IMG/VR virus record: IMGVR_UViG_3300037851_000192
Coordinates: 1 to 64,000 of that record
DNA: 64,000 bases
Reading direction: 5' to 3' (one strand)
Source of the DNA: a virus
The translations under genes and the position numbers were made by a program. The notes beneath the pieces are model-generated. The model was not told the origin of the DNA and did no database searches. It saw nothing but the letters and a program-made list of their open reading frames with translations. Within the stretch, counting starts at the first letter, position 1, and the number at the start of each line of letters is the position of its first letter. This document shows positions 8,996 through 54,770 of this stretch, piece by piece.

Positions 8996-9600
8996 AGATC
9001 GAGACATTCGCGGGCGTGTTTCAATTCAACGGCGCGGAGCGGCGCTTTGCGCTCGAGGGCGACGCGCTTCGGATCGGGCCGCTCTCGGTCAACGAAGCAA
9101 GCGGCTTGCTCTCGGCGATCGAGGACCGCGAGGGCGTGCAACCTGCCGAGCCCGTGAAGGTAAAGGCCGAGCCCGTCGAGCTTGCGGGCGGCACGAAGGC
9201 CGCGGGCCGTGTGAAGAAGCCCGCGGAGGCTCGACCCGAGCCCGTGAAGGCGGAGCCCCCGAGGCAAGTTGAGCTACCGAAGGTCGAGCCCGTGAAGGCG
9301 GAGCCGGAGCCGGCCGACGAGGCCGAGATCCCGTTCGGTAAGCCGGAGGCCGAGGCGAGCCCGGACAACGGCGGAGGCGTGGCCGAGACCGTGAAGGCGG
9401 GCGACGCGGCGGGGCGTCTCGACTTGTCCGCGGCGAAGCGCTTGGCCGACGTGATCTCGGCGTTGCAAGAGCAAGGGATCACGGACGCGGAGGCCTTGAT
9501 CGCGGAGTGCGAGCGGCTCCGGCCCGAGGTTCCGCTCCTTGCGCGGATCCCCGATATGCGCGATCGCGTCGAGCGAACTCTCGCCACGCTTGGACAATGA
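8992..9600 (+). CDS. hypothetical protein with Pro/Glu/Lys/Val-rich linker
   Basis: ATGA overlap start 8992; repeated EPVKAEP-type linker. Confidence 0.5.
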   Translation: MKIETFAGVFQFNGAERRFALEGDALRIGPLSVNEASGLLSAIEDREGVQPAEPVKVKAEPVELAGGTKAAGRVKKPAEARPEPVKAEPPRQVELPKVEPVKAEPEPADEAEIPFGKPEAEASPDNGGGVAETVKAGDAAGRLDLSAAKRLADVISALQEQGITDAEALIAECERLRPEVPLLARIPDMRDRVERTLATLGQ

Positions 9601-12356
9601 CGGCCGTTGTCCGCCTCTACGCCGGCGTTCCGCGCGCGGCGGTCGAACTCGCGGAGCCGAGGAGCCGATCCACGCTTCCGGTTCTTCGCGAAGCGATCCC
9701 CCCGTCGATCGGCGACGGCCGGGACTGCCAACGGTGCGCGCTCCGCGAGGGCGTGCACACGGTTTGCGTAGGGGCGGAGGGCGAGCCCGGCGGGCTCATG
9801 TTGATCGGCGAGAGCCCGGGAAGCAAGGAGGACACGCGGGGGCGGCCGTTCGTTGGACCTTCGGGCTTGCTGCTCCGCGAGCAAGTCGCGAAGCATTGGC
9901 GCGGGCCGGTCGCGATCGACAACGCGATCCGTTGTGCTCCGGGCCGGCGCGAGGTCACGGAGAAGCACGTCGAGGCGTGCCGGGGCTACCTCGTGGACAC
10001 GATCCGCGAGGTCGCGCCAGCTCGGATCGTGACGCTCGGATCGTGGGCGTCGTTCGCTCTGTTCGGTCGGTCGGTTCCGCCGATCTCGTCGCGGCGCGGG
10101 TACGCCTATCTGTTCGACGTGGCCGACGATCCCGTGCCGTGCTTCTTCGTGCTTCATCCGGCCGCGGCGTTGCGCAACCGATTCGTGCGCGCTTGGTTCG
10201 AGGCCGATCTCGCTTGGGCTCTTACGGTCAAGCCCCCGAGGCCGGCGCCGGCGCTCGGCGTCGTGCGCGTGGTGGATTCGGTCGAGAGTGCGCGCGAGGC
10301 GATCGAGGCCGTGCGCGGCAAGCGGTGCGCCTTCGACGTCGAGACGGCGGGGATCTTGTGGAACCGATCCTTCCGGATCGAGGCGTGCTCCGTGGCGCCG
10401 GTTGGCGACGAGACCTCGGCGGCGTGGCTTTGGGATCGCGAGGCGATCCGCAACCGCGAGATCCGCCGGCCGCTCGAGGAGTGGCTCGCGGACGAGGCGG
10501 CGGAGAAGGTCGGGCACAACGTCAAGTTCGACGTCAACGCGGTCCGGGCCGCGTGGGGCGTTTGCGTGCGCGGCGTCGTGGGCGATACGCGCTTGTGGCG
10601 TAGGCTGCGCGATCCCGAGGCCGGCGCGAAGCTCGACGAAACGGCCGAGCTTGTCGGGATGGGCGGCATGAAGGCCGAGGCGCGCGCGGCGATGAAGGCC
10701 GTGGTCGATCGCGTGAAGTCGGGGATCTCGGCCGAGAAGACGATCGAGAAGCGCAAGGCCGAGGACGCGGCGCGACGCTTGGGCGACACCGCGAAGAAGT
10801 GGCCGCGGCTCTCGGCGCCGCGAAGCGAGGGCTTGGTCTACCTCGAGGAGATCGGCCGAACGGATCCCGAGCTTGCCAAGGTGATCCGCGACGCTCCAAG
10901 CGAATGGGAGCGCTACGCCTACGCGCTTGTCGACCGCGAGATCCTTGCGCGGTACAACGCGAGGGACACGATCGCAACGGCGCGGCTTGCGGCGAAGCTA
11001 CCCGAGGCGCTCGCGGAGGTTCCGTCGCTAGACCGGCTCCGGCGCATGATCGTGGATCGTGCCGGCAACGCGATCGCGGAGGTCGAGCGTTGGGGCGTGG
11101 CGGCCGACCGCGCGGCGATCGCCAACTTCGACCGCTTCCTCGGCGTGAAGATCGACGAAGTGAAGGCGCGGATCGACGCCTACGGCTTCGACTTCAATCC
11201 CGACTCTCCGCCGCAAGTGGCGCGCATTCTGTTCGAGGTCTTGAAGCTCCGGCCGCCGAAGCTCACGGACACGGGGCGCGCTTCGACGGACAAGGAGGTC
11301 CTCGCAGAGCTTGCACGAAAGCACCCGTTCGCGCGTGACCTTTCCGAGTGGCGGCGGCTTGGCAAGCTCCGCGGCACTTACGCCGGCAGCCGTGAAGGCG
11401 AGGGGCTATGGGCTCACGTTCGCGAGGACGGGCGGATCCATACGTCGATCCTGCTCGACGGCGCGGGCACGGGGCGGACGAGTTCGCAGGAACCGAACTT
11501 GCAGAACATTCCGGTCCGCACGGCCGAGGGCCGCATGGCGCGCGATTGCTTCGTCGCGGCTCCCGGTTGCTTGCTCGTGCAACTTGACTACTCGCAGCTC
11601 GAACTCCGGGTCGCGGCGATGCTCTCGCGCGATCCGGCCATGATCTCGATCTTCCAATCGGGCGACGACTATCACACGCGGACGGCGCAGATCATCGCCA
11701 AGATCGCGTGGGGCATTGGCCCCGACCAAGTGCAAAAGAAGCATCGGTTCACGGCGAAAACGATCAACTTCGCCCTACTCTACGGCGCGGGCGACGCGAA
11801 GATCGCCGAGCAGATCAAGACGCAGAGCAACGGCGAGTTCTCGGTCACGTCGGAAGACGTCGCGAAGATCCGCGTCGCGATCCTCGGCGCGTTCCGCACG
11901 TTCTCACAGTGGGCCGACAAGAAGCTCGCGGAGTCGCGCAAGACGGGGCAGGCGTGGACGTGGTGGCAAGGTGCGCCGGCGCGGTGCCGGTCGCTTTGGA
12001 AGATCGGATCGAACCAAGGCGACGACGACGGCGCGCGGATCACGGCGGAGCACTCGGCGGTCAATACGCCGGTGCAAGGCACCGGATCGGACTTTTGCAT
12101 CGCGTCGCTTACCGAGCTTGTCGAGTGGATCCAACGCGAGGGGATCGAGGACGTGGTCAAGCTCGTGCTTCCCGTGCACGATTCGATCATGTTCGAGTGT
12201 CGCGAGGATTGGGTCGAGCGCGTGGCGAACAAGGCGCGCGAGGTCATGACCGGCTGGCCGAGCGACGGCGTTCCGCTTGTCGTAGACGTCGAGGTCGGCC
12301 GCTCGTGGGGTTCGCTCGCGAAGTGGCCGCCCAAGCCTGAAAGCGAGGCAGCATGA
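9597..12356 (+). CDS. family-4 uracil-DNA glycosylase fused to family-A DNA polymerase (3'-5' exo + pol)
   Basis: GESPGSKED...GRPFVGPSG and VLHPAA (UDG family 4); FDVETAG, HNVKFD, YNARD (exo I-III); DYSQLELRV, RFTAKTINFALLYG, PVHDS (pol A/B/C). Confidence 0.85.
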   Translation: MTAVVRLYAGVPRAAVELAEPRSRSTLPVLREAIPPSIGDGRDCQRCALREGVHTVCVGAEGEPGGLMLIGESPGSKEDTRGRPFVGPSGLLLREQVAKHWRGPVAIDNAIRCAPGRREVTEKHVEACRGYLVDTIREVAPARIVTLGSWASFALFGRSVPPISSRRGYAYLFDVADDPVPCFFVLHPAAALRNRFVRAWFEADLAWALTVKPPRPAPALGVVRVVDSVESAREAIEAVRGKRCAFDVETAGILWNRSFRIEACSVAPVGDETSAAWLWDREAIRNREIRRPLEEWLADEAAEKVGHNVKFDVNAVRAAWGVCVRGVVGDTRLWRRLRDPEAGAKLDETAELVGMGGMKAEARAAMKAVVDRVKSGISAEKTIEKRKAEDAARRLGDTAKKWPRLSAPRSEGLVYLEEIGRTDPELAKVIRDAPSEWERYAYALVDREILARYNARDTIATARLAAKLPEALAEVPSLDRLRRMIVDRAGNAIAEVERWGVAADRAAIANFDRFLGVKIDEVKARIDAYGFDFNPDSPPQVARILFEVLKLRPPKLTDTGRASTDKEVLAELARKHPFARDLSEWRRLGKLRGTYAGSREGEGLWAHVREDGRIHTSILLDGAGTGRTSSQEPNLQNIPVRTAEGRMARDCFVAAPGCLLVQLDYSQLELRVAAMLSRDPAMISIFQSGDDYHTRTAQIIAKIAWGIGPDQVQKKHRFTAKTINFALLYGAGDAKIAEQIKTQSNGEFSVTSEDVAKIRVAILGAFRTFSQWADKKLAESRKTGQAWTWWQGAPARCRSLWKIGSNQGDDDGARITAEHSAVNTPVQGTGSDFCIASLTELVEWIQREGIEDVVKLVLPVHDSIMFECREDWVERVANKAREVMTGWPSDGVPLVVDVEVGRSWGSLAKWPPKPESEAA

Positions 12357-40207: not shown

Positions 40208-40532
40208 CGTCGCGTGGTATCTGATAGCGGGCGCGATCGTGCTCGGCGCGGCGCTCGTGACCGTCGGCTTGTCGAAGAACGCGGCGCGATGGGAGGCGGA
40301 GCTTAGGTTGCCCGCGTGGTTTAGCGTCGCGGGCGAGGTTGTCGCGATCGTGATCGCAACGGCCGGCGGGGCGGCCGCGGGCTTCTGGACGTGGCATTGG
40401 GGGCTCGGCCTCTTGTCCGGTCTCGTCGGCTCGCTCTCGGCGTCGATCGTCGTGCGGTTCGTGGCCGCGTGGATCGAGCGAAGGCGGGGCGAGAACGACG
40501 ACGAGATCAAGAAGGCGGATCGACCGGGATAG
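40161..40532 (+). CDS. integral membrane protein (about 3 TM segments)
   Basis: WYLIAGAIVLGAALVTVGL, VAGEVVAIVIATAGGAAAGFW, LGLLSGLVGSLSASIVVRFV. Confidence 0.5.
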   Translation: MNPPTPVQHTAPVPNDVAWYLIAGAIVLGAALVTVGLSKNAARWEAELRLPAWFSVAGEVVAIVIATAGGAAAGFWTWHWGLGLLSGLVGSLSASIVVRFVAAWIERRRGENDDEIKKADRPG

Positions 40533-41826
40533 CTCCGGCGCGGCGCTCCGCCTTGCGGCCCGTGAGTTCTTCCCAACGGCGGACCGAGACGTCGCACCAC
40601 TTGGGTTCGACGTCGATCCCGATGCACCGGCGGCCGGTCTTCTCGCACGCGATCACGGTTGTCCCCGAGCCGAGGAACGGATCGAAGACAAGCTCGCCGG
40701 CGTCGCTCGAGTTCTCGATCAATTCGGCGAACAAGACGACCGGCTTCGCCGCGTTGTGCTTGCGCTCGTGCCCGCTCACGCGCGGATAGCGGACGAGGTT
40801 TAGCTTGTGGACCTGCCGTTGCCCTACGCGCGACGAGCGCTTCATGATCCGCTCCTTCGGAAGCGCCGCGAAGAACGCCACAAACTCGTGCGTGTTAGCG
40901 TAGGACGAGCCGAGCCCGCACGATAGCTTGTCCCAAACGATGCAGTTCTTAGGCGTGAGCCCGCCGCGTCGCGCGCCATCCCAAAGCGCGGCGTAGCTCC
41001 GCCAATCGCAGCACACGTAAACGTGTGCGAACATGCGAACGTGTTCGCCGCAAATGCGCGCGAGCTTCTCGAAGAAGGGGCGAACCATCTTGTCGTCTGC
41101 AATATCGGCAGCGATCCCCGTGCTCGACCCGTAGATCGCGAACGGCGGATCGGTCAGAACGAGATCGACTAGCGCGTCCTCGAGGAGCGCGCGGCGCTGC
41201 TCCTCGTGAAAGGTGTCGACGCACGCGATCTTGTGATCTCCGAGGATCCAAAGGTCGCCCGGCTTCGTGATCGGATCGGCTAGCGAAACGAACCGCTCGG
41301 GCTCCTCGTCTTCGTCGGTTGCCTCGGGCGGCGCCTCGTCCGTCGTGATCTCGAGTTCGCCGGCGCTCGTCGCGGCCGCGATCAAGGAGTCGATCTCGCC
41401 GCTCTCGAAGCCGAAGTCCACGGGAAGGATCTCGCCTTCCGCCGCAAGGTCCGCGAGCACGCGGCCGAGGTCGGCGTCGCTCCGCCACGTTCCGCGCTTT
41501 TGGTCTAGTTTGATCGTGAGCGCCTTGGCTTCGCGCTCGGTCAAGCCGTGCAAGAGCACCATGGGCCCTTCGTGAAGGCCGACGTCGCGCGCGGCGATCC
41601 ATCGGTGCTCGCCGTCAATGATGAGGTTGCGAGGCGTGGCGATCTCGTCGGTCGCCCATACGAGAAGCGCTTGTGATACGAGCCAACCGTCCTCGCGGAA
41701 GCCGTGGCGGATCGACGCCATGACGTGTTCGGGGACGTGGTTTGGGTTCCAGCTATTCGGCCGCACTTGGTCGAGCGGAAGGATCTCGACCTTGCCGCGC
41801 AGCCTGGCGGCGTTCTGCTCGTGCAC
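40507..41826 (-). CDS. ParB-like domain fused to DNA (N6-adenine/N4-cytosine) methyltransferase
   Basis: GTG 41826 with GAGG 8 nt upstream; ILPLDQVRPNSWNPN...IIDGEHRWIAA (ParB); LTDPPF (motif IV); FDPFLGSGTT (motif I). Confidence 0.75.
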   Translation of the reverse strand: MHEQNAARLRGKVEILPLDQVRPNSWNPNHVPEHVMASIRHGFREDGWLVSQALLVWATDEIATPRNLIIDGEHRWIAARDVGLHEGPMVLLHGLTEREAKALTIKLDQKRGTWRSDADLGRVLADLAAEGEILPVDFGFESGEIDSLIAAATSAGELEITTDEAPPEATDEDEEPERFVSLADPITKPGDLWILGDHKIACVDTFHEEQRRALLEDALVDLVLTDPPFAIYGSSTGIAADIADDKMVRPFFEKLARICGEHVRMFAHVYVCCDWRSYAALWDGARRGGLTPKNCIVWDKLSCGLGSSYANTHEFVAFFAALPKERIMKRSSRVGQRQVHKLNLVRYPRVSGHERKHNAAKPVVLFAELIENSSDAGELVFDPFLGSGTTVIACEKTGRRCIGIDVEPKWCDVSVRRWEELTGRKAERRAGAIPVDPPS

Positions 41827-41977
41827 GAATGACCTCGCGAAGAAGTTCGACAACGATCGTGTTGCGGGACAGATACCCGCCGCGAACGCGCATCGTGGCG
41901 CGCTTGATCTCGTCCACGTCGGCAAGCAACCGCTTGTCGAGCCGGACGAACAAGACGACGTGTTCGCGCGCCATCAT
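41753..41977 (-). CDS. ribbon-helix-helix protein
   Basis: ATG 41977 in ORF 41753..42148(-); VVLFVRLDKRLLADVDEIKRA...SRNTIVVELLREVI; 3' 74 nt overlap the methyltransferase start. Confidence 0.55.
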   Translation of the reverse strand: MMAREHVVLFVRLDKRLLADVDEIKRATMRVRGGYLSRNTIVVELLREVIRARAERRQAARQGRDPSARPSAAE

Positions 41978-42025: not shown

Positions 42026-43609
42026 GTGCCGATCCACGTCGAGGACTTGAACGAGGACGTCCGCGCCACGCTTGCCGATATTGCGCGGCAGCGACACCGC
42101 GCGATCGTCGCGCGAGCGCGCGAGGATCCGGCGGTATTCACAACCCACGTCCTACGCGACGAGAAGACGGGCAAGCGGATCAAGCCAGCGCCGGCGCACT
42201 TGCGTTGGCACGAGTTGATCGACACGCACGACCGCTTGATCCTATGGGCGCACGTCGAGGCGGGGAAGACGGCGCAAATCAGCGTTGGCCGCTCGTTGTG
42301 GGAGCTTGGCCGGAACACGAACGTCCGGATCGCGATCGGGAGCAAGACGAAGCCGCTCGCGCAGAAGATCGTCCGCCAATGCCAGCAAGTGATCGCGGGT
42401 AGCTCGCCAATGTCGGCCGCCTACCGCGAGGTCTTTCCGAACGTCATACCCGCCAAGGATCCAAGCATGCCTTGGACCTCGCTCGCGATCACGATCGAGC
42501 GCACGAACCCGGTCCGCGATCCGTCGATCCAAGCCTTCGGCAACTTCGGGAACATCATTGGATCGCGTATCGACCTCTTGGTCTTGGACGATGTTCTCGA
42601 CCAAACGAACACGCGAACGCCCGCGCCGCGCGAGGCGCTTTGGGATTGGGTTCGCTCGACCTTGTTCGGCCGGCTCACGTCGAACGCGCGCGTCGTGCTC
42701 GTCGGGAACGCTTGGCACCCGGACGATCTCATGCACCGCTTCGAGCGCGAGCCCCGTTTCCGTGGCTTCCGGTTCCCGGTCCTCGATCCGAACGGGCTCC
42801 CGACGTGGCCCGAGCGTTGGCCGATCGAGCGCGTCGAGGCGGCCCGCGAAGACTTCGGTCCGTTGGATTATGCGCGGCAGCTATTTTGCCAACCGCGCGA
42901 CGACGACTCCGCGCGCTTCAAGCGCGAATGGGTCGAAGCCGCGCTCGCTCGTGGCTCCGGGCTCGACTTCCTTCCGACCCGCGCCGAGGTCCTCGAGGAG
43001 TTGACCGACCCGGCAACGGCGGCGCTCTATCGGCTCGGGAAGATCCTCGCGAACGACAAGATCCGGATCTTCACCGGCGTCGATCTTGCCGTTCAACAGC
43101 ACGCGGCCGCGGACCTCACGAGCTTCGTCACGATCGCGGTGCTTCCCGACGGGACGCGGCGCCTTTGCTCGGTCGAGAGTGGGCGTTGGGGAGCGCCCGA
43201 GATCCTCGCCCGGATCGAAGAACACGATCGCCGCTACCAACCGATCTTCGTGGTCGAGAACGTAGGCGCGCAAGACTACATCGTGCAACTTGTGCGCGCG
43301 ACGACGGCGATCCCCGTGATCCCCTACACGACCGGCAAGACGAAGGCGCATCCGGAATTTGGCGTCGAGGGGATCGCGGCCGAACTCGCGGCCGCTAAGT
43401 GGATCTTTCCGAACGCGGGGGCGAGCGATCGCGGCGGCGCGAAAATGCACCGCGAGGTCTTCGCGCTCGTGCAAGAGCTACTCTCCTACGATCCGCGCTC
43501 GCACACGGGCGACCGGCTCATGGCGCTTTTCTTCGCTCGCGAGGGCGCACGCACAACCGAGGCGCGGCTCGGTTCCGGCCGCGCGCGGGCTACAGTGATC
43601 AAGGCATGA
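42026..43609 (+). CDS. terminase large subunit
   Basis: WAHVEAGKTAQIS (Walker A-like), IDLLVLDDVLD (Walker B-like); size and position upstream of portal. Confidence 0.8.
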   Translation: MPIHVEDLNEDVRATLADIARQRHRAIVARAREDPAVFTTHVLRDEKTGKRIKPAPAHLRWHELIDTHDRLILWAHVEAGKTAQISVGRSLWELGRNTNVRIAIGSKTKPLAQKIVRQCQQVIAGSSPMSAAYREVFPNVIPAKDPSMPWTSLAITIERTNPVRDPSIQAFGNFGNIIGSRIDLLVLDDVLDQTNTRTPAPREALWDWVRSTLFGRLTSNARVVLVGNAWHPDDLMHRFEREPRFRGFRFPVLDPNGLPTWPERWPIERVEAAREDFGPLDYARQLFCQPRDDDSARFKREWVEAALARGSGLDFLPTRAEVLEELTDPATAALYRLGKILANDKIRIFTGVDLAVQQHAAADLTSFVTIAVLPDGTRRLCSVESGRWGAPEILARIEEHDRRYQPIFVVENVGAQDYIVQLVRATTAIPVIPYTTGKTKAHPEFGVEGIAAELAAAKWIFPNAGASDRGGAKMHREVFALVQELLSYDPRSHTGDRLMALFFAREGARTTEARLGSGRARATVIKA

Positions 43610-45355: not shown

Positions 45356-47359
45356 ATGAAAAGCGCGGCGATCGTGAAGGCGTCGGTCTACGACGCGGAA
45401 GCGAAACGCTCGAACATCGTTCCCACGAACGAGGACGAGCGCTTCTATTCGATCACCGGCGCGATCCCTCCGCCCTACGATCCGGAGCAGCTCTGCTCCT
45501 TGTACGAGAAAAGCTCGAACCTCCGGCCGAACGTCGAAGCGCTCACAACCAACGTCGAGGCGTTCGGCTTTCGGCTCGAGTCGGCGATCGACTTGCACGC
45601 ACCGGACGCGGACGCGCGGATCGCGGATTCGATCTTGATCGAAGCCTTGTTCGATGGCCGCGTGCCGAATCTCGACAAGGCCGCGGTCGCGGCGCGCCGG
45701 CTCGAACTTCAAGCCCTCGAGCGCGTCGAGCGCTTGCGGACCGCTCTGTTCTTCGAGCACTGTTGCGCGGAGTCGTCTTTTGTCGAGCTACGCAAGCGCA
45801 CGCGCGTTGACCTCGAAGTCACGGGCAACGCCTACTGGGAAGTGCTTCGGAACCGCATGGGCGAGATCGCGCAATTCGTCTACGTGCCGAGCACGACCAT
45901 GCGCCTCATGCGTTCCGATCTCGAGTTCACGGAGGCCGAAACTTGGCAACGTGTATCGGCTGCCGAGTTCCGCCGCGTGACCGAGTTCCGCCGCTTCCGT
46001 CGCTTCGTTCAGTACATTCGCGGGCAGGAAGTTGCCTACTTCAAGGAGTTCGGCGATCCGCGCACGGTCTCGGCAAGAACCGGCCGCGTCTACCCGGACG
46101 AGGCTTCGTTCCATCGGACCGAGCCGAAGACGCCGACGGCTTCCGAGATCGTCCACTTCCGGATCCATTCTCCGCTCTCGGTCTACGGCGTGCCGCGTTG
46201 GGTCGGTGCAACGTGCGCCGTTGCCGGAACGCGCAACGCCGAGGAAGTCAACCTAGACTACTTCGACGCGAAGGCGGTCCCGCCGTTCGCGATCCTTGTC
46301 TCGGGTGGCGTGCTCGCGGAGGGCGCGGCCGATCGGATCAAGGATTACATTCGAGACCAGATCAAGGGAAAGGAGAACTTTCATTCGGTCATGGTCCTCG
46401 AGGCCGAGCCCGCCGGCGGCGGTGCCGTGACCGGAATGCAAGGCGCGCGCGTGCGGATCGAGATCAAGAACCTCCGCGATGCGCAGAACGCCGACGCCTT
46501 GTTCCAAGTCTACGAGCAGAACAACGCCGAGAAGGTCGGCAGCGCCTACCGAATCCCGAAGATCCTCCGCGGTTCGATGCTCGACTTCAACCGAAGCACG
46601 GCCGACGCCGCGCTTCGCTACTCCGAGCAACAGGTCTTCAACCCCGAGCGGCAAGCCTTCGATTACTTCGTGAACCAACGGATCCTCACGGATCGCGGCG
46701 TGCGCTTCTTGCGCTTCACGTCGAACTCGCCGGTCGAGAAGGATCCGCCGGTGCTCGTGGATATGGCGGCGAAGCTCGTGGACTCGGGCGTGATCACGCC
46801 GAACGAGGCGCGCGTGATCGCGGCCGATGCGTTCAATACGCGGTACGATCCGGTCTCGGCGCCGTGGGCGCGCATCCCTCCGAAGTGCGCGCAACTTGGC
46901 TTCTCGCCCGAGCCTACGCCGGAGGAAGCCGAGCAAGCCGCGGCCGAGGGATCGGCCGCTCGTCCACAAGTCACGCTCGCGCCGACGGACGCCGCTTCCG
47001 TCGTGACCGTGAACGAGGCGAGAAGCTCGCTCGGTCTCGGGCAGCTCATGAGCGCCGACGGATCCTCCGATCCGGATGGCTTCTTGTCGCTTGCGCAATT
47101 CCGCGCGAAGCAAGACGCAACGGGCGGCGTTGCGCTACCTTCGCCGGCCGATGCTCCGCTCGAGACGCAAGCGCGTCGGCTTGTCGAACTTCGCGATCAA
47201 CTTCGCGAGGTCGAAGGCTTCGCGGGCGAGGCCGCGCTCCGTGAAGCTCGAAGGGCCGAGGCCGAGGCCGTGCACCATGTTCCGGCCGCGGAATGGAACC
47301 GTTGGTTCGGCGATGCGCCGGCCGCGGAGGAAGAAGCCGAGCAGACCGAGGGGGGATAG
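45356..47359 (+). CDS. portal protein
   Basis: 667-aa ORF between terminase and MuF-like gene. Call rests on size and synteny; no motif verified. Confidence 0.7.
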   Translation: MKSAAIVKASVYDAEAKRSNIVPTNEDERFYSITGAIPPPYDPEQLCSLYEKSSNLRPNVEALTTNVEAFGFRLESAIDLHAPDADARIADSILIEALFDGRVPNLDKAAVAARRLELQALERVERLRTALFFEHCCAESSFVELRKRTRVDLEVTGNAYWEVLRNRMGEIAQFVYVPSTTMRLMRSDLEFTEAETWQRVSAAEFRRVTEFRRFRRFVQYIRGQEVAYFKEFGDPRTVSARTGRVYPDEASFHRTEPKTPTASEIVHFRIHSPLSVYGVPRWVGATCAVAGTRNAEEVNLDYFDAKAVPPFAILVSGGVLAEGAADRIKDYIRDQIKGKENFHSVMVLEAEPAGGGAVTGMQGARVRIEIKNLRDAQNADALFQVYEQNNAEKVGSAYRIPKILRGSMLDFNRSTADAALRYSEQQVFNPERQAFDYFVNQRILTDRGVRFLRFTSNSPVEKDPPVLVDMAAKLVDSGVITPNEARVIAADAFNTRYDPVSAPWARIPPKCAQLGFSPEPTPEEAEQAAAEGSAARPQVTLAPTDAASVVTVNEARSSLGLGQLMSADGSSDPDGFLSLAQFRAKQDATGGVALPSPADAPLETQARRLVELRDQLREVEGFAGEAALREARRAEAEAVHHVPAAEWNRWFGDAPAAEEEAEQTEGG

Positions 47360-47362
47360 CTC

Positions 47363-47695
47363 ATGAGCGAACCGGGCGAAGTGATCGCGCGGTGCACGCT
47401 CACGGCCGCGAGCTATCAGAAGTGCCTTGCGACGCTCGAACGCGGGCAAGTCAAGCGCGTGATCCAACGTGGCCCGCTCGTCGGGTATTACCTTTGCTGC
47501 CCGTCGTGCGGTTGGGCTAGCGCCTACCTTCACGAGAAGTGCGGATACGTCGAGGCCGAGCCCTACGTCGGGACGTCATGGCCGCGGCGGCTCGTCGGGA
47601 TCACGAATCCCCCGACGTGCCACAAGTGCCGATCGCGTTTGTCGATCGAGAGCGGCGTCGAGGGCTTCGACCTCGTGGCGCGGGGGCAGCCGTGA
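47363..47695 (+). CDS. zinc-ribbon protein
   Basis: CCPSCGW...CHKCRS. Confidence 0.5.
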   Translation: MSEPGEVIARCTLTAASYQKCLATLERGQVKRVIQRGPLVGYYLCCPSCGWASAYLHEKCGYVEAEPYVGTSWPRRLVGITNPPTCHKCRSRLSIESGVEGFDLVARGQP

Positions 47696-50600
47696 TCGGG
47701 CTCGTCGCCATCCGAAGGGGCCGCTACGCGGCGGACGAGATTCTCGCCAAGGTCTTCGGCCTTCCCGTGCGGAAGGCGCGACGAGTCAACCCGAACAAGC
47801 CGAAGGGCTTTGACGCCTTCGTGGTCTCGCTGCTCGGGGATCTTGTCGAGGAAGCCGAGCCGATCGAACGCGAGGCGATCAAGACGTGGCTCCGCGATAT
47901 GGATCGCAACTGGCCGTCCATGACGAAGGACCAACGGAACGCGGCGATCGACCGCGCCGCGCGGGAATGGCTCGACACGACGCGACGGATCCCGGTCCAT
48001 CAATGGCCAACCTACGCCGCGCACGGCAAGACGATCGTCGAGCAAACGAAGGCGGCCGCGGTCCTCGAACACGGGATCCGGATCGTGCCGTCGTTCGACC
48101 TCGTGGACGCGCAAGCCGTGAAGTCGTCGGCGGAAATGCAGGCGTTCTACACGCGCAACTCCTACGGGTTGCGCGAAGTGCAAATGAGCGAGCAAGCGCG
48201 GAAGATCGTGTCCGCGGGGATCGAGGGCGGGCTTGACCGCTACGAGATCGGGAAAGACCTCGCGGCGATGGCGGCGACGGGCCCGGTTTCGTGGCAGCGA
48301 TCGATGGGTTACTTTCAGATGATCGCGTCCGTCTTCACGGCACGCGCGCGGAGCTACTCGAACCTTTCGGCCTACCAGCAAGCCGAGATCGAGCGCTTCC
48401 GATTCGAGGCCGTCCTAGACGAAGTGACGACCGACGTTTGCCGCATGATGCACGGCAAGACGTTCACGACTTCGACCGCGCTCGAGGGCTACGCGAAGGT
48501 GGCGGCGAGCGAAGATCCCGAGGACGTGAAGACGATCCAACCGTGGGTCCAAACCGGGAAGAACGAGCAGGGCGACCAGATCCTCTACTACAAGAACGCC
48601 GAGGGCTCGCGCGTGAAGGTCGCGAGCGTCAACGAATCGGCGGTCGGCAAGAAGGACACGATCGGGAGCTATGCGGGCATGAGCCCGCGGCAACTCGAGC
48701 GCGCGGGGATCTCCGCTCCGCCGTTGCACGGGCATTGTCGATCCGTGATCGTTCCCGCCAGCATGCAAGGCGGCGTTGGTGCCGTTCCGCGCGGGCCCGC
48801 TCCGGCAGCGGTTCCCGTGGCGCCTTCCGCGCCCGTGGCTCCGGCGGCCCCGCCACCCGCTCCGGCTCCCGTCGTTCCGACGGCTCCGGCCCCCGCGCCC
48901 GTTGTACCGCCTCCGGCCGCGGCCCCCGCTCCGCCTCCGGTCCTTCGGACCGATCAAGATCGCGCGTGGCACGCGCTCGACCGGCTCGGCCGGCTCCCGC
49001 GCGCCGACCCGAACGATCGCGAGTTCGACGCGATCGTCAACCCGATCCCGAGCGCGAGGCCTGACAGTTACGCGCTTCCGTGGACCGACAAGACCGAGCG
49101 GCAGGTTGGGCGCTTGTCCGAACGCTTCCGGCAACTCGAGGCCTCGGGCGGGGCCCCGCCGGCGCAGCAAGTGAAGATCAACCAACTCCGATCTATGTCG
49201 CCGGACTTGCTTCGCGCGAACGTCATGACGGGGATCGGCGAGGAGTTCACGGGCGCGCCGGGCGAGATCCCGCTCCTCGTTCGGCATAGGGGGCAGCTCT
49301 ACATTTACGAGAACGCCGAGCGCGTCGCGGCCGCGACGCTCGGCGGGCGATCAACCATCGCGGCGCACGTTATCGACCTCGACGCCGACGAACCGTGGCC
49401 GAAGCCCGCGCCGACCCCGGCCGCGGCTCCCCCGTTGGTTCGACAACCGGCGCCGATTGCACCGCGGCCCGTCGCTCCGCCTCCGCCTCCGCCTCCGGCG
49501 CCGATCATTCCGGCTCGCGCGCGGACGTTCCGCGACGACGAGGCGCGCGGATCCTTCGCGCTCGAACAGCTAAGCGGCCTCCCCGAGTTCGACTCCGGCG
49601 AACCGTCGGATCTTCGGTTCGTGCAGAATCCGATCCCGAGCTTCACGCGCGAGGTGACGGGCTACTCGAACCCGCCATGGTCGGCCGAGAACCAAGCCCG
49701 GCTTACAAAGTTCGAGGAACGGCTAGGCGTGCTCCGGAAGGAGGGGCGCGCACCGCTCCCGCGCGCCTTGCGGATCGGCGAACTCCAATCAATGTCGCCG
49801 GACTTGCTTCCGAAGAACATCGCGCAAGGCGTCGTCGAGGAGTTCTACGGCGTGCCGGGCGATACCCCCGTGGTCGTTCGCACGGGCGGCAAGCTCTACG
49901 TTTACACGAACGTCGAGCGCGTCGCGGCCGCGAAGCTCGGCGGCCGATCGACCGTCTCGGCGCACGTTATCGACCTCGACGCGCGGAAGCCGTGGCGCGC
50001 TCCGCCGAAGAAGAAGAAGCCGGAGCCCGCGCCCGCGCCCGCGCCCGGCGAGGAGCCGAAGCCGAAGAAGATCCCGGTCTCCTATGTTTCATCCGAGGAG
50101 TTCGCGCGCAAGCACACGAGCGCCTACGCTTCGGCCTTCACGAAGAAGGAGTTCGCGGCCGCCGCGCGCAAGGTCTTCCCTTCGGACAAGATCCCGACCG
50201 TCGAGTCGCTCGAGAAGGTATGGGGCAGCGAAGCGGCCGAGCACTCGATCAAGATTTCGAGCGTGCGCGCTTACGACGAGGACGGCGTCGCGAAAGTGTG
50301 GCTAAGCGGCGACATTATCGGACCCAAGGGCAACTCGATCGGAAGGATCACGCGCACGTTCATTCGATACCCGAAGGACCGACGGCACCCGAACGGGTTG
50401 CTTGAAGTGCATCACGACTACTTCAAGATCGAGGACGCCGACGAGCAGGGGAAGAAGACCGGCGAGAGCATGCTCCGGCAATCGATCCAAACCTACGAGG
50501 AGCTTGGCGCGCACAAGCTCACGGTCGATGCCGCGTGGGTCGGCCGCTACACTTGGGCCACCTTCGGTTACAACTGGACCGAGAACTATGGGCGGAACAC

Positions 50601-50889
50601 GATCGCGCCGCGGTTGACGCGCTACCTCGTCTCGAAGGGGATCGACCAAGAGCGAGCCGCGGGCCTAGCGGCGAGCGTGGCCACGGAGTCGTGGGCGGTC
50701 GCGGCGCTCGACGTAGACGACAGAAGGATCAACGTCACGAGCGAGGGGAAGAAAATGGACATGAAGCTCGGCAAGGCGTTCCTGTTGGAATACACGAACA
50801 CGAGCGGCGATATGTGGAGCGGCACGATCGACCTCGAGGACAAGAGTCACCCGACCTACCAGCGCGCGAAGGCGCGCGTTGGTCTCTAG
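47692..50889 (+). CDS. MuF/SPP1 gp7-like minor head protein with two ParB-like repeats and a GNAT-like C-terminal domain
   Basis: GTG 47692 (GTGA overlap); LDEVTTDVCRMMHGKTF and PPLHGHCRSVIVP (MuF); repeats at 48946-49386 and 49522-49986; EQGKKTGESMLRQSIQTYEELGAHKL (GNAT motif-A-like). Confidence 0.7.
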   Translation: MIGLVAIRRGRYAADEILAKVFGLPVRKARRVNPNKPKGFDAFVVSLLGDLVEEAEPIEREAIKTWLRDMDRNWPSMTKDQRNAAIDRAAREWLDTTRRIPVHQWPTYAAHGKTIVEQTKAAAVLEHGIRIVPSFDLVDAQAVKSSAEMQAFYTRNSYGLREVQMSEQARKIVSAGIEGGLDRYEIGKDLAAMAATGPVSWQRSMGYFQMIASVFTARARSYSNLSAYQQAEIERFRFEAVLDEVTTDVCRMMHGKTFTTSTALEGYAKVAASEDPEDVKTIQPWVQTGKNEQGDQILYYKNAEGSRVKVASVNESAVGKKDTIGSYAGMSPRQLERAGISAPPLHGHCRSVIVPASMQGGVGAVPRGPAPAAVPVAPSAPVAPAAPPPAPAPVVPTAPAPAPVVPPPAAAPAPPPVLRTDQDRAWHALDRLGRLPRADPNDREFDAIVNPIPSARPDSYALPWTDKTERQVGRLSERFRQLEASGGAPPAQQVKINQLRSMSPDLLRANVMTGIGEEFTGAPGEIPLLVRHRGQLYIYENAERVAAATLGGRSTIAAHVIDLDADEPWPKPAPTPAAAPPLVRQPAPIAPRPVAPPPPPPPAPIIPARARTFRDDEARGSFALEQLSGLPEFDSGEPSDLRFVQNPIPSFTREVTGYSNPPWSAENQARLTKFEERLGVLRKEGRAPLPRALRIGELQSMSPDLLPKNIAQGVVEEFYGVPGDTPVVVRTGGKLYVYTNVERVAAAKLGGRSTVSAHVIDLDARKPWRAPPKKKKPEPAPAPAPGEEPKPKKIPVSYVSSEEFARKHTSAYASAFTKKEFAAAARKVFPSDKIPTVESLEKVWGSEAAEHSIKISSVRAYDEDGVAKVWLSGDIIGPKGNSIGRITRTFIRYPKDRRHPNGLLEVHHDYFKIEDADEQGKKTGESMLRQSIQTYEELGAHKLTVDAAWVGRYTWATFGYNWTENYGRNTIAPRLTRYLVSKGIDQERAAGLAASVATESWAVAALDVDDRRINVTSEGKKMDMKLGKAFLLEYTNTSGDMWSGTIDLEDKSHPTYQRAKARVGL

Positions 50890-50906: not shown

Positions 50907-51188
50907 ATGGCGAAGAAGCAAGAGGGGCAGCCCCCGCACGGGACCGGCGACGAGGGACTCGCGATCGACCTCGAGGAAGCGGCCGACCGCGCGAACCAAA
51001 CGGAGCCGCAACCGAATTGGGGCGAGCTTGCGACGATCACGGCCGAGACCAACCGCTTGCGCGAGGCCGGCGGGTTCGACGTTGCGGCGCGTGCGGGGCT
51101 CTTGATCCGGATGCGAAACGCGATCCCGTCCGGTCCGCTCTGGCAATACCTCGTCGACCGCACGGCGGCGGAGATCCTTCGCGACTAG
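50907..51188 (+). CDS. hypothetical protein
   Basis: ORF 50907..51188. Confidence 0.5.
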   Translation: MAKKQEGQPPHGTGDEGLAIDLEEAADRANQTEPQPNWGELATITAETNRLREAGGFDVAARAGLLIRMRNAIPSGPLWQYLVDRTAAEILRD

Positions 51189-51233: not shown

Positions 51234-52736
51234 ATGGTGCCCGAGCAAAAGGCCGAGTGGTCGGCTGCCTACGTGAACGATCTCCCCGACTCCTCGTTCC
51301 TCTACGTCGAGCCCGGAGGCAAGAAGGACGAGACGGGCCGCACGGTCCCGCGCGCGCTCCGGCACTTTCCGGTCAAGGACGCGGACGGGAAAGTGGACGC
51401 ACCGCACGCACGCAACGCGATCGCGCGGATCCCTCAGTCGAACGCCCCGGGGCTCGACGCGGGCAAGAAGCAACGGCTACAAGACGAAGCACGCCGGATG
51501 CTCGAAGGCTCGCAGAAGGCGCTTGACGTCGTGAAGGCTGACACGATCGCACGCGCGAAGGCGGCCGCGGCGAAGCTCCGCGCCGGAACCAAGAAGGGCG
51601 ACGCGGCGGGCGCCGACCTCGAGGCCGGCGGGATGAAGGGGCCCGAGCAGCCGAGGCGGCCGCTATGGGAGCCGGAGAAGAAGGCGGAGGCACCGGCCGC
51701 GCCGACGCCGGTGCGGCGCGTCTTCGCCGGGATCCCGGTCGTGGTCGACCGGCCGAAGGGCTACGTGCAAGAGGGCAAGGCCGCGGACGGCGCCGCGTGG
51801 CGCCGCGTTTACCACGTCGATTATGGGCACATTCCCGACACGAAGGGTGGCGACGGCGAAGGCCTCGACGTCTTCGTGGGCGGCGACGAGACCGCGAAGG
51901 ATGCACATTGGATCTTGCAACGTAAACCGGACGGCTCGTTCGACGAGTACAAGGTCATGCTCGGCTTCGCGGACGTCGCAACGGCCAAAGCGATCTACTG
52001 CGCGCACATTCCGAAGCGGTTCCTCGGCTCGATCGCAACCATGCCGATCGAGTTTATGAAGGCGCTTCTCGGGATCGAGCCGACCGAGATCGCGAAGGCC
52101 GAGGACGCGATCCGCGGGATCGTCGAGTCGTGCAAGGCCGAGGACGCGATCGCGCTCCTCGAGAACTTCGGACCGCCGGACGAGTGGTCCGGCGCGGTCG
52201 CGTCGATCGCCGGACCCGAACGGCGGCGCGCTATGCAAGAGGCTTGGGCCGCGTGCACGCCGGGACAGCAAGCGATGATCCGCGAAGTGTGGGCGCGGAA
52301 CATGGGCGCGACTGACGGAACCGAAGACGAAGGCGGCCCGCGTGTCGAGCGCGCGATCAAGATCGCGAAGGCCGGACCGGAGGCGGGCGAGCTTCGCTAC
52401 GTGCTCGGCGTCGTTCTCGAACCCGAGACCGTGGACGGGCAGGGCGACGTCTACAGCGCGGACGAGATCCGGCGCACCGCTTGGGAGTACATGGCGAACT
52501 TTCGCAACGTCGGGCTCATGCACAAGGGGCTCGTCAACGGCAAGGTTCGGCTAGTCGAATCTTGGATCGCGCCATGCGACGTGACGGTAGACGGCACGGC
52601 GGTCAAGGCCGGATCGTGGCTCATGGGGCTTCACGTCGTAGACGACGCGATCTGGCAAGACGTGAAGGCCGGTAAGCTAACCGGCTTGTCGATTGGGGGC
52701 TTCGCTCGGCGTGAGCCGGTCGCGGCCTCGGCGTGA
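51234..52736 (+). CDS. multidomain prohead protease (XkdF-like C-terminal domain)
   Basis: C-terminus LRYVLGVVLEPETVDGQGDVYSADEI...VESWIAP...GSWLMGLHV...GLSIGG matches the XkdF/S78-type pattern; central pyrophosphatase-like DYGHIPDTKGGDGEGLDVFV. Confidence 0.6.
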   Translation: MVPEQKAEWSAAYVNDLPDSSFLYVEPGGKKDETGRTVPRALRHFPVKDADGKVDAPHARNAIARIPQSNAPGLDAGKKQRLQDEARRMLEGSQKALDVVKADTIARAKAAAAKLRAGTKKGDAAGADLEAGGMKGPEQPRRPLWEPEKKAEAPAAPTPVRRVFAGIPVVVDRPKGYVQEGKAADGAAWRRVYHVDYGHIPDTKGGDGEGLDVFVGGDETAKDAHWILQRKPDGSFDEYKVMLGFADVATAKAIYCAHIPKRFLGSIATMPIEFMKALLGIEPTEIAKAEDAIRGIVESCKAEDAIALLENFGPPDEWSGAVASIAGPERRRAMQEAWAACTPGQQAMIREVWARNMGATDGTEDEGGPRVERAIKIAKAGPEAGELRYVLGVVLEPETVDGQGDVYSADEIRRTAWEYMANFRNVGLMHKGLVNGKVRLVESWIAPCDVTVDGTAVKAGSWLMGLHVVDDAIWQDVKAGKLTGLSIGGFARREPVAASA

Positions 52737-52777: not shown

Positions 52778-53806
52778 ATGAACGCCTCGTTCCGTGGTTT
52801 CTCGTTTCTGAACTCGCTCGCGCGTGCGCAGCACGCTAAGGCGCGTCTCTCCGAGATGATCACGCAAGAGGTTTCGATGGTAGACGCGGCGGCAAATCTC
52901 CGTCGCTTCGTTGTCGTCAAGAGGAACAACACGATGGCCGACGAACAAGTGGCGAAGGTCGCGCTCCGTCTCCCGCCCGAGGCGAAGCGGGGGATCATGG
53001 ATGGCCTTGCGACCGCGCTCGACAAGCTCACCGCGCTTGCGACCGTGGTTGGTGACGCGGAGGAAGACGAGCAGGTTTTCGTTCCGTCCGATCTCGGCGA
53101 CGCGCTTCGGCAGTGCGCCGAGCTTGTCGGGGGCCTCGCGGCGCAATACGTGCCCGCGCAGCCCGAGCAGCCCACGGAGGAAGCGCCGGCCGAGCCCGAG
53201 GCCGCTCCCTCCGAGCCCGGCGTTCCCGACGCGATCGCGGCTCCGGCCGAGCCGGCGATGATGGGCAAGGCGCTCCCGCCGGCCGAGACGACGCCGCTCA
53301 CGCTCGCGCCGCAGAACGAGCCGCTCACGATGGCGCCGCAAACGAAGGCGATGATCGCGGACGCCTTCAAGGCAATCGCGGGCGAGATTGCCGAGACCGC
53401 GAAGGCGGGCCGCAAGATCGCCGGGCAGCGCTACAAGAAGCTGGCAGAGCTTCACGACACGCTCGGCAAGCTCTTGAACGAGCTGGCCTACGACGACGCC
53501 GCGGGCGCGGCGGGCTTGGGCTCGGAGGCCGAGGGTGCTCCGGCCGCGAAGGCTTGCGCATCCGACGGCAAGAAGACCAAGAAGGACGAGCCGGTCGCGA
53601 AGGCTGCCGACCCGAAGCTCGCGGAAGTTCTGGCGCTCACGAAAGCGAACGCCGAGAAGATCGAAGCGATCGAAAAGGCAAACCGGACGCCCGAAACACC
53701 GCGCGCTCGGTCGGCCGAAGGGGGCGGCGCTCCTTCGACCGTGTGGCCCATGGACATGAGCGCCGCTCTCGCCAAACGAAAGAGGGCCGAGAAGGCGGCG
53801 CGCTAG
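52778..53806 (+). CDS. scaffolding-like protein (Ala/Glu/Pro-rich)
   Basis: ORF 52778..53806 between protease and capsid; alternative start ATG 52934 (AGAGGA upstream). Confidence 0.5.
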   Translation: MNASFRGFSFLNSLARAQHAKARLSEMITQEVSMVDAAANLRRFVVVKRNNTMADEQVAKVALRLPPEAKRGIMDGLATALDKLTALATVVGDAEEDEQVFVPSDLGDALRQCAELVGGLAAQYVPAQPEQPTEEAPAEPEAAPSEPGVPDAIAAPAEPAMMGKALPPAETTPLTLAPQNEPLTMAPQTKAMIADAFKAIAGEIAETAKAGRKIAGQRYKKLAELHDTLGKLLNELAYDDAAGAAGLGSEAEGAPAAKACASDGKKTKKDEPVAKAADPKLAEVLALTKANAEKIEAIEKANRTPETPRARSAEGGGAPSTVWPMDMSAALAKRKRAEKAAR

Positions 53807-53834: not shown

Positions 53835-54770
53835 ATGGCACCGAACCAGACCTACATCGAAAAGGCGGACATGGCGATCGCCGATCTCACGAGCGGCGGC
53901 CTCCTTGCTCCCGAGCAAGTCAAGACCTTCTACGAGCTAGTGATCGACGAGTCGGTCCTGCTCCCGATGGTTACAACCGTCCCCATGAGTTCCCCGACGT
54001 GGGAGCTTTCCAAGATGGGGTTCACCGGCCGCGTGCTTCGGCGTGCGACCGAAAACCAAGGGCTGCCCGAAGGCGATCGCAGCAAGCCCGAACTCGGCAA
54101 GGTCACGCTCACGACCGAGGAGTTGATCGCGGAGTGCCGGATCCCCTACGCGGTGGTCGAGGACAACATCGCGAACGGCTCGTTCCCGCAAGTCGCGCTC
54201 GGCTTCTTGTCGAAGGCGGTCGCGCGCGACCTCGAGGACCTCGTGATCAACGGCGACACGATGAGCGTGGATCCGTTCTTCAACATTCTCGACGGGCTCT
54301 TGAAGCAGATCACGAGCTACACCGTCAACGCGGGCGCCGTTCGCCTGAACAAGACGCCGCTCAAGGTCATGCTTCAGACCATGCCGCAGAAGTACCGCCG
54401 GCAGGGCGGGCTCGCGTTCCTGACCTCGGGCAACGCCGCGATCGACTATGCCGATTCGCTCTCGAACCGGCAGACCCCGCTCGGCGACGAGGCACTCGTG
54501 CGGAAGGCCGTGGGCGAGTACATGACCTATCCCGTCGTGCCGGTTCCGCTCATGCCGGAGAATCTCGGCAGCGGGAACAAGACGGACGCGATCCTCATGG
54601 ATCCGAAGAACTTCCACGTCGGGATGCACCGCGACATTCGGATCGAGACCGACCGCGACATTTCGGCGCGGCAGTTCGTGATCGTCGCGACGCTCCGCGT
54701 GGGTTGCAAGCTCGCGCACGAGCCGGCAACCGTGAAGGCAACCGAGATCCTCGCGGCCGCGGGCGCGTAG
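53835..54770 (+). CDS. major capsid protein (HK97-fold type)
   Basis: GGAGGA SD; 311 aa after the scaffold; sequence pattern typical of HK97-family capsids (recollection). Confidence 0.7.
   Translation: MAPNQTYIEKADMAIADLTSGGLLAPEQVKTFYELVIDESVLLPMVTTVPMSSPTWELSKMGFTGRVLRRATENQGLPEGDRSKPELGKVTLTTEELIAECRIPYAVVEDNIANGSFPQVALGFLSKAVARDLEDLVINGDTMSVDPFFNILDGLLKQITSYTVNAGAVRLNKTPLKVMLQTMPQKYRRQGGLAFLTSGNAAIDYADSLSNRQTPLGDEALVRKAVGEYMTYPVVPVPLMPENLGSGNKTDAILMDPKNFHVGMHRDIRIETDRDISARQFVIVATLRVGCKLAHEPATVKATEILAAAGA

Follow-up and report, generated by a model that had tools for sequence, protein, structure and literature searches.

The 64,000-nucleotide stretch of viral DNA examined here (positions 1 to 64,000 of IMG/VR virus record IMGVR_UViG_3300037851_000192, hereafter called the window) carries a gene for a 1065-amino-acid protein in the midst of its head genes. 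The protein opens with a MuF-type head morphogenesis domain and continues with two repeats and a large C-terminal domain, with linkers rich in Pro, Ala, and Lys standing between all modules. MuF proteins of related phages are either bare, at 313-364 amino acids (Vibrio, Rhizobium, and Aeromonas phages), or bear one added domain (Stenotrophomonas phage DLP_5). What, then, are the additional domains of the window protein, and what might they do in a phage head? Structure prediction indicates that the C-terminal domain has the GNAT core fold, and profile comparisons indicate that the repeats are probably ParB-derived pseudo-enzymes. Our best reading, to which as a whole we give an even chance of being correct, is that the gene encodes a minor head protein that would serve as a capsid-delivered acyltransferase effector. 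The gene and its parts, numbered by position in the window, are arranged as follows:

47692..50889, + strand: whole gene for the 1065-amino-acid fusion of a MuF domain, two putative ParB-like pseudo-domains, and a GNAT-like domain (stop codon 50887-50889; from the list of open reading frames)
47692..48786, + strand: MuF / SPP1 gp7-type head morphogenesis domain, amino acids 1-365 (phrog_13868, TIGR01641, tblastn)
48787..48945, + strand: linker 1, Pro/Ala-rich, with the short degenerate DNA repeats D2 and D3 inside it (translation)
48946..49386, + strand: repeat 1, amino acids 419-565, with its ParB-like core at roughly 49150-49386 and ENAER at the DGHHR position
49387..49521, + strand: linker 2, Pro-rich (translation)
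49522..49986, + strand: repeat 2, amino acids 611-765, with its ParB-like core at roughly 49750-49983 and TNVER at the DGHHR position
49987..50130, + strand: linker 3 and lead-in, Lys/Pro-rich (translation)
50131..50886, + strand: predicted GNAT-fold domain with a C-terminal helical/beta extension, amino acids 814-1065 (AlphaFold2 model, Foldseek against PDB and BFVD, Pfam GNAT matches of relatives)
roughly 50242-50562, + strand: GNAT core within that domain
50446-50463, + strand: motif-A-like loop QGKKTG within the GNAT core

The open reading frame (ORF) that the initial annotation had delimited at 47692-50889 is real. Its longest form, 47539..50889, would encode 1116 amino acids, and a GTG codon at 47692, preceded by a G-rich stretch, yields the form with 1065. 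We regard this GTG as the better start because it overlaps the stop codon of the upstream 110-amino-acid ORF by four nucleotides (GTGA), because the alignment to phrog_13868 begins at residue 4 of the 1065-amino-acid form, and because a representative public protein library holds an identical 1065-amino-acid product (P0003).

Membership of the N-terminal domain in the MuF family was judged by a profile score above the curated cutoff (TIGR01641) together with a portal gene as neighbor. Amino acids 1-365 score 45.4 bits with TIGR01641, whose cutoff is 39.65, and the portal gene lies upstream, separated by the 110-amino-acid ORF. The match to phrog_13868 extends over amino acids 4-353 with an E-value of 1.6e-54; Pfam PF04233 gives 24.0 bits, under its gathering score of 29.6. 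The motifs DVCRMMHGKTF and PPLHGHCRSVIVP, previously taken as MuF/SPP1 gp7 signatures, are found in the translation and match their equivalents in the MuF protein of DLP_5. When the MuF portion is used as a tblastn query, MuF genes adjoining portal genes are recovered from Stenotrophomonas, Rhizobium, Vibrio, and Aeromonas phages.

The nature of the C-terminal domain emerges from structure prediction. An AlphaFold2 model built from an alignment of 37 sequences (A2) is of high confidence, with a predicted local distance difference test (pLDDT) value of 94.3 and a predicted template modeling (pTM) score of 0.89, and a Foldseek comparison with PDB places essentially only GNAT-fold structures among its top 50 matches. 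These neighbors include the acetyl-CoA-binding C-terminal domain of Mycobacterium tuberculosis ICL2, Rv1916, NatD, Naa50, and Naa10/Ard1, as well as the GNAT toxins TacT and AtaT and SpeG-type enzymes. Foldseek probabilities are ~1.0, and the E-values are modest (5e-4 to 1e-2). The domain comprises 252 amino acids, of which ~100 form an extension past the GNAT core that is conserved in the family. Matches over the full length are obtained from BFVD, with query-normalized template modeling (TM) scores of 0.57-0.73, in uncharacterized phage proteins that include those of Bacillus phages JL and CP-51 and one labeled 'phage head morphogenesis domain'. On the evidence of this model, the C-terminal domain has the GNAT core fold, as the initial annotation had suspected.

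Relatives of the domain tell a similar story at the level of sequence profiles. Pfam GNAT models give weak, sub-threshold matches in 13, 8, and 6 of the 37 relatives, and the giant relatives that carry multiple copies have clear matches above threshold (Acetyltransf_1 with 66 bits in P0016). A comparison of the family profile with PDB sequences lays the Gly-rich loop and the following strand-helix on the GNAT structure 2q0y, at a non-significant E-value of 0.28. In the family consensus, a helix comes after a Q-G-x-G-x-G loop, and a G-x-Y-x-W-A-x-F-G segment falls on GNAT beta5/alpha4. Over 217 copies of the domain, R888, H908, G920, G922, Y935, G939, G951, Y953, W955, and G959 (window protein numbering) are 77-98% conserved; for R888, H908, Y935, Y953, W955, and the Gly-rich loop the range is 83-97%. 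This pattern of conserved residues suits a cofactor or active site. The string EQGKKTGESMLRQSIQTYEELGAHKLTVDAAWVGRYTWATFGY, singled out by the initial annotation, is present and spans the most conserved part of what proves to be a large protein family.

The two repeats upstream of this domain, each ~150 amino acids long, also hold up at the positions first given for them (48946-49386 and 49522-49986). They are 46% identical to each other (BLASTP E-value 5e-43), and their C-terminal halves form a DNA-level repeat of 224 nucleotides (49176-49399 and 49773-49996) with 77% identity and a spacing of 597 nucleotides. Scans of the repeats with Pfam, NCBIfam, and PHROG give no ParB match and only weak PF23719 and PriCT_1 noise. 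Likewise, searches of PDB sequences with the whole protein (phmmer) or with a repeat profile (hmmsearch) return only low-complexity or spurious matches.

A link to ParB-like domains is obtained when an alignment of nine repeat copies (A3) is compared with other domains by hhalign. With the DLP_5 domain alone, A3 reaches 69% probability (E-value 4.3e-5). With four reference domains that have the DGHHR motif (from DLP_5, DLP_3, a Rhizobium phage ParB-like::XkdF protein, and P0054), it reaches 96.2% probability, an E-value of 2.5e-9, and a score of 56.7 over 77 columns. The controls are low: the reversed A3 query gives 0.1% probability, 100 column shuffles give at most 0.5% probability and a score of 13.9, and 100 block shuffles give at most 29.9% and 26.7. 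The same alignment puts TNVER of repeat 2 and ENAER of repeat 1 exactly on DGHHR, in agreement with the replacement that the initial annotation had read from a resemblance to the ParB/sulfiredoxin fold. Against Pfam ParBc_2, the DGHHR reference domains themselves stay just under the gathering score of 23.6, with 22.8 and 23.1 bits. The lower of these values belongs to the DLP_5 MuF protein's C-terminal domain, which has an intact YVQDGHHRLVA and also matches PF23719.

Only a Val, a Gly, and the ..IDLD strand at the end stay unchanged in all nine repeat copies, and the topology predicted for a repeat is beta-alpha-beta-beta-alpha-beta. In a Foldseek comparison with PDB, the low-confidence model of a repeat has a single high-probability non-GNAT match, Arabidopsis sulfiredoxin (6ky4; probability 0.99, E-value 0.068, target-normalized TM-score 0.55). 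The assignment of the repeat core as a domain derived from ParB/sulfiredoxin that has lost its nuclease/NTPase site is therefore good but not final, since it combines one profile-profile link with a poor model. As judged from the aligned motifs, the repeat is probably a pseudo-enzyme in which TNVER or ENAER takes the place of DGHHR.

The repeat domain is a constant companion of the GNAT-like domain. Among the best 150 matches to a library of 1.84 billion proteins it is found in eight protein clusters, in all of which it stands directly upstream of the GNAT-like domain, and two copies are present only in the window protein. This constant adjacency suggests that the two domains work jointly. In P0007 and P0008, a canonical DGNHR domain lies between the MuF and GNAT-like domains, and the region just upstream of the GNAT-like domain in P0010 is homologous to its counterpart in this pair (jackhmmer E-value ~1e-47). 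Compared by hhalign with the DGNHR pair alone, A3 yields 0.2% probability. Word-indexed homologue searches with the repeats return no match even though relatives exist, and Pro-rich words likely swamped the candidates. No relative is found when genome, viral, and metagenome contig collections are scanned with an alignment of the repeat and GNAT-like domains, and a scan of viral contigs with the ParB-like domain of DLP_5 recovers DLP_5 itself only.

Two side observations concern ParB-like domains elsewhere. In Rhizobium phage RHph_TM3_3_9 (contig L010, 1342-2079), a DGHHR ParB-like domain is fused to an XkdF prohead protease in a protein annotated as 'DNA methyltransferase/prohead protease'; thus, ParB-like domains recur in head modules on differing carriers. 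In addition, PF23719 ('Antitoxin VapB-like') and ParBc_2 match the same residues in the C-termini of the DLP_5 and DLP_3 MuF proteins, and PF23719 matches weakly to window repeat 1 and to two of the nine aligned repeat copies. Judging from these shared residues, the PF23719 family is probably related to the ParB fold despite its name.

How widespread is the GNAT-like domain? A word-indexed search detects two close homologues only. An exhaustive HMMER search started from a small alignment yields 1576 cluster representatives with E-values of 1e-3 or less, 349 of them at 1e-10 or less, and the family therefore comprises at least 1576 clusters. Architectures were counted in the best 150 of these representatives. 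Among the 115 of them with a single copy, the domain is at the extreme C-terminus in 92, and a MuF N-terminus is recognizable in at least 28 of the 150. P0004 and P0017 join portal_Mu, MuF, and cargo in one polypeptide, P0031 combines MuF and the GNAT-like domain with an ADP-ribosyltransferase (ART), and the N-terminal region of P0006, ahead of its ParB-like and GNAT-like domains, harbors an intein (PF14890).

In four metagenomic contigs from independent samples (L001-L004), the ParB-like and GNAT-like domains form a separate 389-amino-acid gene. This cassette gene begins 40 nucleotides after a 432-amino-acid muF gene with a Pro-rich tail, which itself follows the portal gene (L001 5082-7589). 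The existence of this split arrangement alongside the fused arrangement of the window indicates that the cassette is functionally linked to MuF.

At the other extreme, 35 of the top 150 members carry several copies of a ~95-amino-acid core. The largest of these are Mycobacterium proteins of 3212 to 7601 amino acids, in which the giant members have six to nine core copies and the annotation 'toxin glutamine deamidase domain-containing'. P0009 (7601 amino acids) and P0016 (3212 amino acids) correspond to the Mycobacterium sp. records WP_462145658.1 and WP_231395961.1. Both P0016 and P0024 (1961 amino acids) also have Gln_amidase and alpha/beta-hydrolase domains, and the toxin glutamine deamidase role of P0009 is known by annotation only.

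Members in cultured phages are more distant. A tblastn search of 50,697 phage genomes with the window C-terminal domain and with the family consensus finds nothing significant, and cultured-phage relatives appear by tblastn only from more distant family members. With the family hidden Markov model (HMM), Microbacterium phage Jera gp5, which is annotated as a capsid maturation protease and adjoins the portal gene, scores 70 bits, and Gordonia phage VanLee gp130, annotated as an acetyltransferase, scores 34 bits. Bacillus phages JL, CP-51, and Shanette are reached by tblastn from P0031 (E-values 1e-10 to 1e-15), and their BFVD models match ours with query-normalized TM-scores of 0.65-0.70. Several Bacillus and Exiguobacterium myophages are further cultured members.

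The genes around the fusion place it firmly within a head module. Its neighbors are:

42026-43609: large terminase
45356..47359, + strand: portal gene (PF04860 E-value 2.9e-23; phrog_12)
47363-47695, + strand: 110-amino-acid Cys-rich ORF (CPSC...CHKC, zinc-ribbon-like) between the portal and MuF genes
50907..51188, + strand: 93-amino-acid acidic ORF directly 3′ of the fusion gene (from the ORF list)
51234..52736, + strand: InPase and XkdF-type prohead protease gene (PF18823 E-value 2.6e-25; PF14550 E-value 5.2e-26)
52778-53806: scaffold-like protein
53835-54770: major capsid protein

The order is therefore large terminase, portal, small ORF, MuF fusion, small ORF, InPase/XkdF protease, scaffold, and major capsid protein. 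Vibrio siphophages and DLP_5 have the same head-gene order, and their capsid proteins are ~38% identical to that of the window. PHROG and Pfam scans give no match for the Cys-rich ORF at 47363-47695 or for the acidic ORF at 50907..51188. The latter is an unproven candidate for an immunity or accessory protein. The notion that it represents a conserved immunity gene was dropped, because the 93-amino-acid window ORF has no homology to the 75-amino-acid ORF located 3′ of the split relative in L001. The product of the gene at 51234-52736 has an N-terminus of ~160 amino acids without assignment, followed by InPase (PF18823, amino acids 164-277) and XkdF protease (PF14550, amino acids 386-493) domains, and it is itself a polyvalent-type head protein.

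Elsewhere, the window encodes a UDG-exonuclease-PolA fusion, helicases, an SbcC-like ATPase, and a ParB_N-methylase. The first of these is a 949-amino-acid ORF (9507-12356, + strand) with a UDG-superfamily domain, a 3′-5′ exonuclease, and a family A DNA polymerase, and the last is a 472-amino-acid ORF (40510-41925, - strand) that combines a weak match to classical ParB_N with an N6/N4 DNA methylase domain. Neither an integrase gene nor any other lysogeny gene turns up in the subset of window ORFs that was scanned, and PDB sequence searches for integrase with two minus-strand ORFs give no match.

MuF proteins like SPP1 gp7 attach to the portal, occur at a few copies in each virion, and exit with the DNA. 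In the most economical model, the N-terminal MuF domain of the window protein would, by analogy, dock on the portal, such that the protein is loaded during procapsid assembly with its remaining domains strung on flexible Pro-rich linkers inside the capsid. At infection, the cassette would exit with the DNA and enter the next host, where the GNAT-like domain would most likely draw on the host's acetyl- or acyl-CoA to modify a macromolecule of that host early, in the service of host take-over or counter-defense. Because the nearest structural neighbors are protein/N-terminal acetyltransferases and toxins that acetylate aminoacyl-tRNA, the best guess for the target is a protein, as the similarity to NAT and RimI-like enzymes would suggest, and the alternative is aminoacyl-tRNA, as for TacT and AtaT. 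The ParB-like modules may provide non-catalytic binding of nucleic acid, nucleotide, or a partner, or they may be spacers that extend the reach of the cassette. It is a matter of speculation that the XkdF protease encoded next door could free the cargo, and that processing could occur at the invariant HVIDLD with which each repeat ends. What we propose about packaging, ejection, catalytic activity, and the target is inferred from the precedent of SPP1 gp7 and the literature on MuF cargoes.

A still more specific proposal, which we put forward tentatively as a possible but doubtful extension, is that a ParB-derived pseudo-enzyme and an extended GNAT-like domain together make up a dedicated, as yet unnamed phage effector cassette. 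This cassette would be injected and would acylate a host target to act against defense or translation, with the ParB modules tethering it to the incoming DNA end or recruiting its substrate. The same unit would then be the repeated warhead of the giant mycobacterial toxin-like proteins.

Several results weigh against an acyltransferase effector. The window protein's C-terminal domain has no GNAT match in Pfam, NCBIfam, PHROG, or PDB-sequence searches and falls below every Pfam GNAT threshold. Direct Pfam comparison supplies neither a ParB-like nor a GNAT-like match, and both resemblances, as proposed in the initial annotation, were gained through profile-profile and structure comparisons. The query-normalized TM-scores with PDB structures are low (0.2-0.3), and the best matches include the regulatory GNAT-like domain of ICL2, which is non-catalytic. 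In addition, the CoA-pyrophosphate loop has a central Gly in 89% of copies, and the window copy has K922 there (QGKKTG versus QGxGxG), such that its binding of cofactor is not assured; close relatives P0001 and P0007 share this Lys. Among the repeats, no residue of a ParB nucleotide or nuclease site is kept across the nine copies, which makes their function a guess, the structural model is poor (pLDDT about 50-59), and A3 does not resemble the classical ParB_N domain encoded elsewhere in the window (hhalign, 0.8% probability).

Could the GNAT-like domain therefore be something other than an enzyme? As an acyl-CoA- or ligand-binding module, or as a structural module in head assembly or DNA retention, it would resemble the ICL2 regulatory domain, which together with Rv1916 heads the Foldseek matches from PDB, and both K922 and the missing Pfam match would fit. 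Nevertheless, we judge this account unlikely, because His, Tyr, Arg, and Trp positions show strong conservation over the 217 copies, because relatives pair the domain with bona fide effector enzymes (an ADP-ribosyltransferase, a glutamine deamidase, and a 2H phosphoesterase), and because up to nine copies are found in toxin-like giant proteins. If the domain is an effector, it might alternatively belong to a MuF polymorphic toxin of the type described by Jamet et al. (2017; PMC5576092), by which a temperate phage would deliver a growth inhibitor to competitors and in which the 93-amino-acid ORF would provide immunity. The layout of a MuF N-terminus, a variable C-terminus, and then a small ORF of fewer than 150 amino acids is that of PMC5576092, and the structural likeness to the GNAT toxins TacT and AtaT points in the same direction. 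However, the small ORFs 3′ of the window gene and of its split relative are not homologous, the ORFs scanned lack lysogeny functions, GNAT or ParB cargo is not listed by Jamet et al. (PMC5576092), and the window, like related siphophages of lytic type, encodes PolA, helicases, and an SbcC-like protein. Given these differences, we find the toxin explanation quite improbable.

The cargo might also act not on the next host but on parts of the phage itself, in the procapsid or in the cell that makes it, for example by acetylating capsid, scaffold, or DNA-bound proteins while the ParB-like modules hold the packaged DNA end. Such a role would make sense of the tether to a portal-binding MuF domain, of the fusion of head-module ParB-like domains to prohead protease in Rhizobium phages, and of the presence of the domain in the annotated capsid maturation protease of phage Jera. 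Yet the domain is abundant in giant Mycobacterium toxin-like proteins that are not of phage origin and also occurs beside ART effectors, which better fits a conflict effector, and we consider a procapsid function very unlikely. The remaining possibility is that both the ParB-like and GNAT-like resemblances arise by chance and that the C-terminal 700 amino acids are novel folds or disordered filler. Direct searches of Pfam, NCBIfam, and PDB sequences with the window protein alone are indeed negative. This explanation is largely refuted by the high-confidence AlphaFold2 model with its consistent GNAT-only top Foldseek matches, by the hhalign link with its shuffle controls, and by the existence of more than 1500 homologous clusters, and we assign it hardly any probability.

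How does this protein compare with systems already known? The use of MuF proteins as carriers of variable C-terminal effectors, which the initial annotation invoked, is established: effector domains joined to MuF are believed to reach the host, and polyvalent proteins of phages include GNATs (PMC5512222), with GNAT, ParB-type, and InPase domains all named as components of such proteins (Iyer et al., 2017, PMC5512222); MuF polymorphic toxins were described in the same year (Jamet et al., 2017, PMC5576092). Like these MuF-cargo proteins, the window protein has an N-terminal MuF domain, a portal neighbor, and variable, effector-type C-terminal fusions. With MuF, two ParB-like, and GNAT-like domains in one ORF of a head module, it has the makeup by which polyvalent proteins are defined, namely at least two conflict-type domains on a single polypeptide that a phage or conjugative element encodes among its virion genes (PMC5512222). 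Its exact string of domains, MuF followed by two inactivated ParB-like domains and a GNAT-like domain, is described in neither publication. The earlier statement that this combination is undescribed is therefore roughly right for the exact architecture, but not for its elements, since MuF with a ParB-like domain, polyvalent GNATs, and MuF with an effector had each been described (PMC5512222, PMC5576092, and the GenBank annotation of DLP_5). The ParB type of PMC5512222 (DdrB-like) keeps its active-site Arg, whereas the window repeats have no conserved catalytic residue. The window family may coincide with one or the other of the two GNAT families that Iyer et al. distinguish, and the relative P0031, with its MuF, GNAT-like, and ART domains, resembles their ART-associated GNAT family.

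The closest cultured counterpart is DLP_5 gp003 (ATS92281.1, 'ParB-like nuclease domain protein'), which has orthologues in DLP_3 and Summit. It belongs to an orthologous head module, and after its MuF domain it likewise has a ParB-like domain, with which the core of the window repeats aligns. Unlike the window protein, with its two domains bearing TNVER/ENAER and its added GNAT-like domain, gp003 has one ParB-like domain with an intact DGHHR and no GNAT-like domain. Members of the GNAT superfamily (Naa10, Naa50, NatD, RimI-like enzymes, TacT, and AtaT) share the core fold with a Foldseek probability of ~1.0, but the identity is 10-18%, and the window domain differs in its extra C-terminal extension of ~100 amino acids and in the Lys at the loop Gly. 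Moreover, no antitoxin of the TacA or AtaR type adjoins the window gene. The family members from Jera, VanLee, and the Bacillus phages JL, CP-51, and Shanette have no ParB-like repeats, and their function is uncharacterized. The giant Mycobacterium proteins share the GNAT-like core in their six to nine copies, but they are multi-effector proteins of cells or plasmids, lack a MuF domain, and have the ~95-amino-acid core only, with no C-terminal extension.

What is new here is thus an apparently catalytically dead ParB-like module in tandem, the fixed pairing of this type of module with an extended GNAT-like family that is invisible to Pfam, and the size and reach of that family, whose members include both phage head proteins and giant mycobacterial toxin-like proteins. 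The principle of MuF proteins with effectors, or of polyvalent proteins, was already established, and the present finding extends this theme and leaves it unchanged.

Regardless of the eventual target, tethering to MuF is one of the few routes by which proteins of tailed phages are thought to enter the host along with DNA. The MuF cargoes known so far are mainly nucleases, ADP-ribosyltransferases, and (p)ppApp synthetases. The GNAT-like domain belongs to a large family that lies below Pfam thresholds and is common to phage head proteins and giant mycobacterial toxin-like proteins, and the duplicated, seemingly dead ParB-like module would be a clear case of a nuclease-fold domain turned pseudo-enzyme in a virion protein. 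The occurrence of the cassette in both split (L001) and fused (window) forms offers an experimental handle on the system. If the cargo is indeed of the acyltransferase type, it would constitute a new class of early host modification.

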